From Octopus vulgaris (lineage: Eukaryota), in assembly GCA_951406725.2 (NCBI GenBank), contig OX597828.1:12276001-12340000 (forward strand): DNA of 64,000 nucleotides, in the 5' to 3' direction. The notes beneath the pieces are model-generated. The model searched no databases and had not been told where the DNA came from. It was given only the letters and a program-made list of their open reading frames with translations. Of the stretch, positions 17,121-59,085 are shown piece by piece (within the stretch, counting starts at the first letter, position 1; the number at the start of each line of letters is the position of its first letter). The position numbers were made by a program, and so were the translations under genes.

Positions 17121-17185
<65 letters not shown>

Positions 17186-17282
17186 TTCATGTGCTTGTGA
17201 ATATACATACACACATTCATATATAATAGAAATATTAAAATTACTAAGTCTCTCTAAAGGAGATTACGGCAGCGTTACTGGG

Positions 17283-17640
17283 TATTAATAGTTATCGTCA
17301 TACTAATATGGCAGTATATAAATAAGACTAAAGCTGTCGCTGATTAGCTCCAAGAGACCATCGCCTCTAGCTAGCTAGCTGACACACGAACCAGCGTCCA
17401 TTACAACCTTCGAACAGGGGAGGTCAGCCGCTTCACCTTGCTAGTCAGACATCTGCAGACATGTTTCAGGGTTGTTGCCCTTTATCAATGCAGCGTAGCC
17501 AGACCTGTTCGAAGGTTGTAATGGACGCAGGTTCGTGTGTCAAATAGCTAGCTAGAGGCGATGGCCTCTTGGAGCTAATCAGCGACAGCTTTAGTCTTAT
17601 TTAAAGACTGCCATATTAGTATGGCGATAAATATTAATAC
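17283..17640. mobile_element. foldback element (~135-bp arms) with a hammerhead in the spacer, between (TA)n tracts
   Basis: 17283-17418 is a close reverse complement of 17504-17640. Confidence 0.85.
17453..17493 (-). ncRNA. minimal type I hammerhead, U3-A8 variant
   Basis: Minus strand reads ctgca-TTGATAA-AGGG caacaa CCCT-GAAAC-AT-GTC-tgcag. Confidence 0.8.
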
Positions 17641-17643
17641 ATT

Positions 17644-17674
<31 letters not shown>

Positions 17675-17745
17675 ATATTAGGGAGTAAATCCAAATTTAC
17701 AGGGAAAAATTAGATTTAGGATTAAATCTAATTTCACAGCATAAT

Positions 17746-18019
17746 TATAAATTAAATTAGAGATAAAACCACTATTAGGCAAATCAAGCAGTGAAAAACA
17801 TAAACCAAAACATAAAAATAAAAATAATTAATATAATTTACAGAATATATAAAATTTAAAATTTAAATAATTTAAATATATTTAAATAATTTAAATTTTA
17901 AATTTTATATTTTATATATTTTGTAAATTATATTAATTATTTTTTATTTTTATGTTTTGGTTTATGTTTTTCACTGCTTGATTTGCCTAATAGTGGTTTT
18001 ATCTCTAATTTAATTTATA
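17746..18019. repeat. ~270-bp AT-rich near-perfect palindrome next to (TA)n
   Basis: ...gagataaaaccactattaggcaaatcaagcagtgaaaaac... is mirrored by ...gtttttcactgcttgatttgcctaatagtggttttatctc...; centre ~17879. Confidence 0.9.
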
Positions 18020-18180
18020 TATATATATGCAGATATATTGATGCGCACACACATGTATATATATATTTTTTAGCGTTTGCTTTTATGTTGTTATATAAAT
18101 AATTTAACGTTTAACTGAAGAATTACCCACGTACACTTTAATACAGATTTATTAACTTTCAAAAAGGGAAGGGTGAGAGC

Positions 18181-45518: not shown

Positions 45519-46473
45519 AAAGAGTTGGACAAAATCATGGAAACACCTACCATCACAGCATTATAATTTTGAAGTATTTATAAAACCATTGAAAACTTAT
45601 TTATTTTTATGCTTTTTTATCTATTATTAGTGTTGCTTAATATGCTTGCCAACATTGATGTTTCTTTTCAGATATCATTAGAAAAAGGTAATTAAATTTC
45701 ATTAAAATGACAGATATATCGGACTTTCAAAGAGGTCGAATTGTTGGTACTTGTATGGCAGGCGCTAGCGTAACAAAAACTGCTGAAATGTCTGGTATAT
45801 CAAGAAGTACTGTCTCGAAAATAATGACAGCCTTTGAGAAAGAGGGAAAAACCTCCTCGTCGAAACGAAACTCCAGAAAAAAACCACAACTTTCAGATAG
45901 GGACCGTCAGACTCTTACGCGAATTGTTAGGAAGGATCACAAAAGTACAGCTCCCAAAATTACTGTAGAGCTTGAAGACCACATCGAGAACCCAGTTTCC
46001 ACAAAAACTGTGCACTGGGAGCTGCGCGAAGCCAAATTTCACGCGAGAGCTGCAATTAGAAAACCACTACTTTCAAAAACAAACTTTGCAAAACATTTAG
46101 AGTGGAGTAACAGACCTACAGAATTGGTCACTAGAGCAGTGGAAGAATGTTATTGTCTCCTTTACCTTATTTCCGACCACCGGCCGAGTATACGTGTGGA
46201 TATAGCCAAAAGAAGCATTTGACTCAGACTGCATTCTTACAACTGTTAAACATGGAGAAGGATCTGTGATGATCTGGCGGAGCTATATCTTGTAAATCCG
46301 CTGGACCAATGGTTTCCCTTCGTGGGAGAATTAATAGTCAAGACTATTTAACCATTTTATCTTATCAAATTCATCCTATGGTTGCGGAATTGTTTCCGGA
46401 GGGAAACGAATCTTTCAGGATGATAATGCACTAATTCACACAGCTAAAGTTGTTACTGAATGGCATGAGGAAC
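45519..46473 (+). mobile_element. Tc1-like transposon, 3' truncated and frameshifted
   Basis: ORF 45707-46222 has a paired-like HTH (DFQRGRIVG...SRSTVSKI...). Downstream are TVKHGEGSVMIW and FQDDNALIHTAKVVTEW. Left TIR agagttggacaaaatcatggaaacacc. Confidence 0.9.
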
Positions 46474-46530
46474 GGTAGTATTCGTCCTATTTTCCTGAAC
46501 TGAAATGTTAGCTTAGCGATAACTATTAAG

Positions 46531-46565
<35 letters not shown>

Positions 46566-46811: not shown

Positions 46812-46882
46812 ATAGGAAAAGGAAAGATCCAGGGAAGGGAAGACGGAGGAAAAAAAATTTCCAACGGTACACACGCGGTCAC

Positions 46883-58835: not shown

Positions 58836-59085
58836 GTGCTTCATGACGTAGTGGTTAAGAGCGCGGGCTACTAACCCCAAGATTCCGAGTTCGATTCCAG
58901 GCACTGAATAATAATAATAATAACAACAACAACATCGAAAGATACATTAGAAATGAGAACCCAGGCTCGAAATTTCCCCAAGACACCTGATGAAGGCTGG
59001 AGGGTATATCAGCCGAAAGGTTGTGTTAACAAACAAGATGAGGACAAATATCCGTCTATTGTAAAAAAAAAAAATGTAAATAATT
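58836..59085 (+). mobile_element. tRNA-headed SINE-like element with a 3' hammerhead motif (58982-59027)
   Basis: A box tgacgtagtggttaag, anticodon-like arm gggctactaaccc, B box gagttcgattcc, (AAT)/(AAC) linker, then gacac-CTGATGA-A-GGCTG...CAGCC-GAAAGGTT-gtgtt and an A-rich end. Confidence 0.75.

Follow-up and report, generated by a model that had tools for sequence, protein, structure and literature searches.

A hairpin-shaped hammerhead locus of Octopus vulgaris is very probably one insertion of a 362-bp non-coding repeat with Penelope-like anatomy

Animal non-LTR retrozymes are non-coding monomers of 170-400 nt (350-390 nt in mussel), which carry a type I hammerhead, have a GC content under 45%, occur as tandem and solo copies, and give monomer RNA in both linear and circular form; Penelope-like elements (PLEs) have been proposed as their mobilisers, and movement in animals is described as proposed and unproven (PMC7229834; bioRxiv 10.64898/2026.07.22.740005). 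The Cercyon PLEs of Schistosoma mansoni feature minimal hammerheads with a U3-A8 core, for which about 1,300 matches have been counted (Cervera and de la Pena 2014, PMC4209133). Positions 15.2-16.2 and loop 3 are palindromic in Cercyon hammerheads, a dimer model has been put forward for them, and pairs are found on opposite strands, 100-700 bp apart (PMC4209133). Covariation of C3-G8 to U3-A8 has been noted in several natural hammerheads, reported to be active in vitro (Perreault et al. 2011, PMC3088659). Insertions of PLEs are marked by partial tandems, an inverted 5'-truncated copy, a tail of 30-40 bp often present at one end only, and microsatellite targets (Craig et al. 2021, PMC8557442), and the length of the tail equals the spacing of the two sites at which reverse transcription starts (Frangieh et al. 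2024, PMC11167929).

The locus described here lies at 17213-17651 of the window, i.e. the whole stretch of 64,000 nucleotides that was analyzed. It contains inverted arms of 137 nt (17282-17418 and 17504-17640), 94% complementary with 8 mismatches and separated by 85 nt, in agreement with the arms of about 135 bp and the 85-bp spacer reported in an earlier note on this DNA. The same note had the element extending from 17283 to 17640; the arms are found there, and the element reaches 57 nt further left, to about 17225. Arm 1 (17282-17418, minus strand) corresponds to positions about 167-304 of a 362-bp repeated monomer described below, in the direction of the ribozyme. Arm 2 (17504-17639, plus strand) is an inverted, 5'-truncated second copy of monomer positions 167-304, and terminates at the shorter fixed end of the family. 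The tail of 57 nt (17225-17281, minus strand; monomer positions about 305-362) is present at the left end only. In monomer coordinates, the insertion thus reads 82-362 on the minus strand (17503-17225), joined to an inverted 167-304 (17504-17639). It spans about 17226-17638, is itself asymmetric, and is flanked by a direct repeat of 13 nt read from the sequence (17213-17225 and 17639-17651), a target-site duplication (TSD) of 11-13 bp whose boundary bases are ambiguous. The right copy continues into (TA)n, found at about 17645-17672, and a (TA)n microsatellite adjoins the insertion at 17122-17182. The spacer (17419-17503, minus strand; monomer positions 82-166) starts at a 5' truncation at position 82, by which the long stem I of the native monomer loses its 5' strand, and is a non-native setting of the hammerhead, which occupies just 41 of the 85 bases. 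The foldback copy hosts one ribozyme only, in one polarity. A second foldback, AT-rich and unrelated to the monomer, lies to the right at 17741-18024 of the window, and features outer arms of 84 nt (98%) and inner inverted arms.

A type I hammerhead motif with a U3-A8 core is found on the minus strand of the spacer at 17453-17493, as the earlier note had maintained. The 5 bp of stem I pair 17493-17489 with 17457-17453; the core U3-U4-G5-A6-U7-A8-A9 lies at 17488-17482, the stem II region, with a 4-bp stem, at 17481-17468, and GAAA at 17467-17464. Stem III measures 2 bp, with a palindromic AU loop, and the predicted cut falls after C17, at 17458. Core boxes, 3-8 pair, NUH site and three stems, as defined for type I hammerheads, are all present, U3-A8 replacing C3-G8 and stem III being just 2 bp long. 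A degenerate core pattern gave 615 matches, versus none for the reversed control, and the motif is thus not due to chance. Rfam reported no hammerhead family in 17230-17645, even at E<=10, and none among the 150 listed of its 154 matches over the window. Within the native monomer, the ribozyme sits at the tip of a long stem I with imperfect pairing, and the predicted probability that stems I and II form together is 0.75-0.81; this figure, as those given below for other transcripts, is a thermodynamic prediction only.

The genome searched measures 2.8 Gb in 227 contigs, and contains at least 828 ribozyme copies of the family to which the locus belongs. The repeated unit is a non-coding monomer of 362 nt, as measured from one cut site to the next in a tandem copy, with 41.7% GC. 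No ORF with reverse transcriptase plus GIY-YIG domains was found, either inside the element or from one monomer to the next. When queried with the foldback, the genome returned 2878 candidates, the best 40 of which were scored. Insertions were analyzed in two sets: 58 loci picked by ribozyme pattern, independently of the foldback (60 fetched, 2 duplicates dropped), and a larger set of 108 loci (116 fetched, 8 duplicates dropped), some of which were chosen with the foldback query. None of the sequencing runs with family sequence is registered as RNA; contigs of four runs presumed to be RNA contain family sequence and are uninformative on strand, ends and circles.

Among the 58 pattern-picked loci, an inverted partner is present in 35 and absent in 23, a TA flank marks 33, and same-strand runs exceed 370 nt in 31. 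Most outer ends (67 of 93) fall near position 304 or near 361, and define two fixed 3' ends 57 nt apart. Outward-facing insertions account for 71 of the 108 loci of the larger set; 45 combine a short and a tail end, 2 have two short ends, 1 has two tail ends, and the remaining 23 include an end of another kind. Duplications of the target, 10-22 nt long, were identified in 15 of the 108 loci, a few of them in simple repeats, whereas shuffled flank pairs gave 2.4 on average and 7 at most; a stricter scan retained 5 of 58 loci. The 5' ends are dispersed along the monomer, and only 2 of 102 are located near the cut (124-132), with no enrichment. Inverted partners are 5'-truncated and joined at variable junctions. 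Apparent 5' ends cluster at positions 93-96, possibly because the alignment of diverged copies is interrupted there. A 34-nt remnant resembling the short end of the family, followed by (TA)n, is found at 46499-46532 of the window (79% identity, E 0.019). At L088:341-2533 a family foldback has been inserted into a PLE ORF and later duplicated, giving tandem units of 261 bp made of an arm, half a ribozyme and ORF sequence.

Searching the genome with the ribozyme pattern gave 828 matches with U3 and 8 with C3, every one of the latter being C3-A8, so that the conservation of U3-A8 expected by the earlier note on aligning family members is borne out. A8 was present in all of the 100 U3 matches listed out of the 828. 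In 49 copies of older type, A8 was found in 47 and G8 in 2, and the unconstrained position 7 was occupied by any of the four bases. The copies sampled included no C3-G8 member, so that U3-A8 predates the family as sampled. The earlier note had seen in U3-A8 a compensatory double change kept by selection; the pair is kept, and the change itself did not take place within the family. Contigs of three sequencing runs of unknown kind, labelled as three organisms, contain the same motif, with no variant at position 3 or 8 among the matches listed.

Loop 3, which the search patterns left unconstrained, is palindromic in 98 of the 100 listed copies (64 AU, 17 UA, 17 GC) and in 48 of the 49 older ones (37 UA, 4 GC, 4 CG, 3 AU), as counted by eye from the listings. 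Covariation was analyzed in 33 aligned copies, 11 younger and 22 of 30 older ones, 8 truncated older copies being excluded. Two stem I pairs swap UA/CG and AU/GC, and compensatory changes affect these two pairs, one stem II pair and the distal stem. The covariation score was 0.168, versus 0.123 in shuffled alignments (0 of 500 reach it) and at most 0.071 in slid controls; covarying pairs were 8, with no excess over shuffles (123 of 500). In this set relatedness inflates the cell counts, and part of the core was fixed by the search pattern. Covariation was no higher than in shuffles among 50 younger copies, and RNAalifold did not recover stem II in younger copies, with 1 of 40 pairs changed on both sides. 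The near fixation of U3-A8, the covariation in stem I and a loop 3 kept palindromic in four sequence versions indicate that the ribozyme is likely under selection. A palindromic loop 3 is what a dimeric hammerhead requires (PMC4209133), and the fact that it has persisted in four sequence versions provides clear evidence from nature for the dimeric model.

By the features that can be checked in DNA, the family is an animal non-LTR retrozyme. Like the retrozymes described, it features a monomer of suitable length (362 nt) and GC content (41.7%), a type I hammerhead, and both tandem and solo copies; head-to-tail repeats with two or more ribozymes, as in retrozymes, are found in 5 of the 58 loci. 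It differs from retrozymes, as far as these have been described in the sources cited, in the U3-A8 core found in nearly all copies, and in being organized mostly as partial tandems with an inverted partner, and not as long arrays. The U3-A8 core, the palindromic loop 3 and the opposite-strand layout are shared with Cercyon hammerheads (PMC4209133). Unlike the latter, the family has a stem II of 4 bp with no additional base behind A9, a stem III of 2 bp, and a native stem I that is long; position 10.1 is often occupied by A in place of G, and no ORF is linked to the monomer. Inverted 5'-truncated copies, a tail at one end, two fixed 3' ends, AT or microsatellite targets and TSDs of variable length are features in common with PLE insertions (PMC8557442, PMC11167929); the absence of an ORF and a tail of 57 nt, instead of 30-40, set the family apart from these (PMC8557442). 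The U3-A8 core is not a new variant. It has already been published for natural hammerheads (PMC3088659) and, along with pairs on opposite strands, for those of PLEs (PMC4209133); core and inverted layout have thus each been described before. The U3-A8 examples of PMC3088659 belong to other families, and the motif of this family is predicted from sequence. No paper on the monomer family was found in the literature searched; Repbase, Dfam and the supplements of papers, which lie outside that scope, may contain it.

All this makes it very probable that the foldback is one insertion of a 362-bp non-coding hammerhead repeat, its arms being likely the scar left by a PLE reverse transcriptase which copied the RNA from two fixed starts, one per nicked end of the target. 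Ends, tandems, inverted copies and TA flanks of the family match the pattern published for PLEs (PMC8557442), and the hairpin shape is likely an insertion scar rather than a viroid-like rod. Tandem monomer copies would be transcribed, the hammerhead would cut as a dimer through its palindromic stem III, and the monomers may circularize. A PLE protein would nick AT-rich DNA and prime cDNA synthesis at two sites; the two cDNAs would stop at different points and then be joined, yielding arms of any length. In the foldback copy one cDNA would start at 362, pass the ribozyme and stop at 82, the other would start at 304 and stop at 167, and with these end points the ribozyme would sit in the loop by accident. 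All ribozyme-bearing copies cross the cut site, so that the template was uncut or circular. Taken alone, the foldback is an ordinary locus, namely a 5'-truncated copy bearing the scar of an inversion. The family is slightly more useful, as its ends bear the two-start-site signature of PLEs, and the same genome hosts a young PLE which is intact and has its ends equally spaced.

This PLE is of the Neptune type, with intact ORFs of up to 1312 aa (10455 candidates, the best 129 scored). Pfam matches to its pieces are below the curated cut-offs, and there is none for the full ORF. Its copies terminate at either of two fixed ends, spaced by about 56 nt and each continuing into (TA)n; 17 distinct flanks were counted for each end, and 2 of those of the short end lie at the edge of a locus. 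In the 37 columns preceding the short end, 24 match the monomer family (score 32, versus 14.6 +/- 4.2 and 0 of 2000 shuffles). This stretch of similarity is short and AT-rich, and was singled out post hoc; when all 110 nt of the end region are compared, 62 of 2000 shuffles reach the observed score. Full-length copies of the Neptune-type PLE gave no significant BLAST match to the monomer. The sequence data point to this PLE as the likely helper, or mobiliser, of the monomer family, and in the mechanism outlined above the 1312-aa protein would be the most likely candidate. As end spacing and genome are shared, the putative retrozyme-helper relationship is directly testable. A hammerhead-like motif with C at position 9 was noticed in the 5' region of this Neptune/Nematis-type PLE (L125:2762-6697, plus strand; also L123 and L126-L130), one version of it occurring 56 times in the loci examined. 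A second young PLE-like family (L200:1597-3777, minus strand; L203, L204) has an open frame of 727 aa, 12769 candidates, and ends 70 nt apart. This family, which lies beside L030, showed no monomer match, no end similarity, and no hammerhead by the descriptor used.

An alternative, that the copies are solo pLTR remnants, i.e. 5'-truncated insertions of an autonomous PLE, with no independent non-coding unit, is improbable. In their anatomy the insertions do not differ from those of PLEs, and most solo or opposite-strand hammerheads have been ascribed to truncated PLEs (PMC4209133); against this, monomers follow each other head to tail with no ORF in between, for up to about 2.8 units in the longest run (L055), and the surroundings of 116 family loci revealed no ORF linked to the family. 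An autonomous PLE using the monomer as pLTR was not found in the two PLE families checked. PLE ORF pieces do occur beside L023, L030, L041 and L005, and were rejected as family-linked because they belong to PLE families with ends unlike those of the monomer; the ORF beside L023 was also discarded as a parent of the monomer, which simply inserted into it.

Viroids of the Avsunviroidae are highly paired RNAs with a hammerhead. The earlier note had proposed that a transcript of the locus would be a viroid-like rod capped by the ribozyme; a reading in which this long rod is the functional unit, and its arms are under selection, is very improbable, and largely refuted by the scatter of the junctions. 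If transcribed, the foldback would be very stable (-251.2 kcal/mol for the minus strand, z -27, with 0 of 100 shuffles as stable), and in the nascent RNA, when the second arm is still unmade, stems I and II are predicted to form with a probability of 0.66-0.74. The same probability falls to 0.04 in the full-length fold, where stem I is disrupted, and the finished rod is accordingly predicted to misfold the ribozyme. The foldback query retrieved more than 20 loci of roughly similar layout, but this set was selected by the query itself: among 36 junctions listed for the 58 pattern-picked loci, 1 resembles that of the foldback, and a 19-nt pattern across the exact junction has one match in 2.8 Gb, this locus. 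One junction, 160/82, which sits on a 4-nt GGTC microhomology, does recur at at least 4 independent sites (L009, L014, L018/L019, L020/L023). The polarity of the tail is opposite in different loci, however, as would be expected if the junction had formed repeatedly and had not been inherited from a single rod. Arms mismatched at 8 positions and asymmetric ends also argue against the rod, and unlike viroids it would derive from a one-off DNA inversion, with the ribozyme in one polarity only. The unit is instead the 362-bp monomer. Variable spacers in other copies, together with transposase-type TIR/TSD signatures, had been named in the earlier note as evidence that would count against its proposal; spacers do vary, as the junctions show, and transposase-type signatures were not found.

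MITEs are short, non-coding elements with inverted ends, and a MITE or foldback DNA transposon with a captured hammerhead, suggested by the long inverted arms, the lack of an ORF and the TA-rich target, is refuted by asymmetric termini (57-nt overhang inside the TSD) and TSDs varying from 10 to 22 nt, with 23 of 58 loci lacking an inverted partner and head-to-tail tandems being common. The warning of the earlier note that a MITE label would be wrong was justified, and the hammerhead escapes Rfam too.

Starting from the single-insertion reading, a more specific scenario may be tentatively sketched, which we consider doubtful as a whole. A circle carrying the dimer-dependent U3-A8 ribozyme would hijack one Neptune-type PLE by mimicking its two start sites, and would be copied from both nicked ends at once; long hairpin genes would be written in this way, and would give rise to double-stranded RNA and small RNAs directed against the family itself. 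If true, this would provide a named retrozyme-helper pair with built-in self-silencing, ready for reconstitution in vitro.

Other hammerhead-like motifs were noticed in the window and in the loci examined. A motif with a canonical C3-G8 core and minimal stem III is found at 58982 of the window (plus strand), in a different repeat family, and one with a C3-G8 core and a CG loop 3 at 46812 (minus strand), in another repeat. A 176-codon open frame at 45692-46219 of the window (plus strand) resembles a fragment of a Tc1/mariner transposase, judging by its motifs. Near-identical C3-G8 motifs lie on opposite strands at L048:489 (minus) and L048:1026 (plus), likely an inverted PLE-type insertion of another family. 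At L050:852 (minus strand) a motif has a U3-A8 core and different stems, and the U3-A8 variant is thus likely present in a second family of this genome too.
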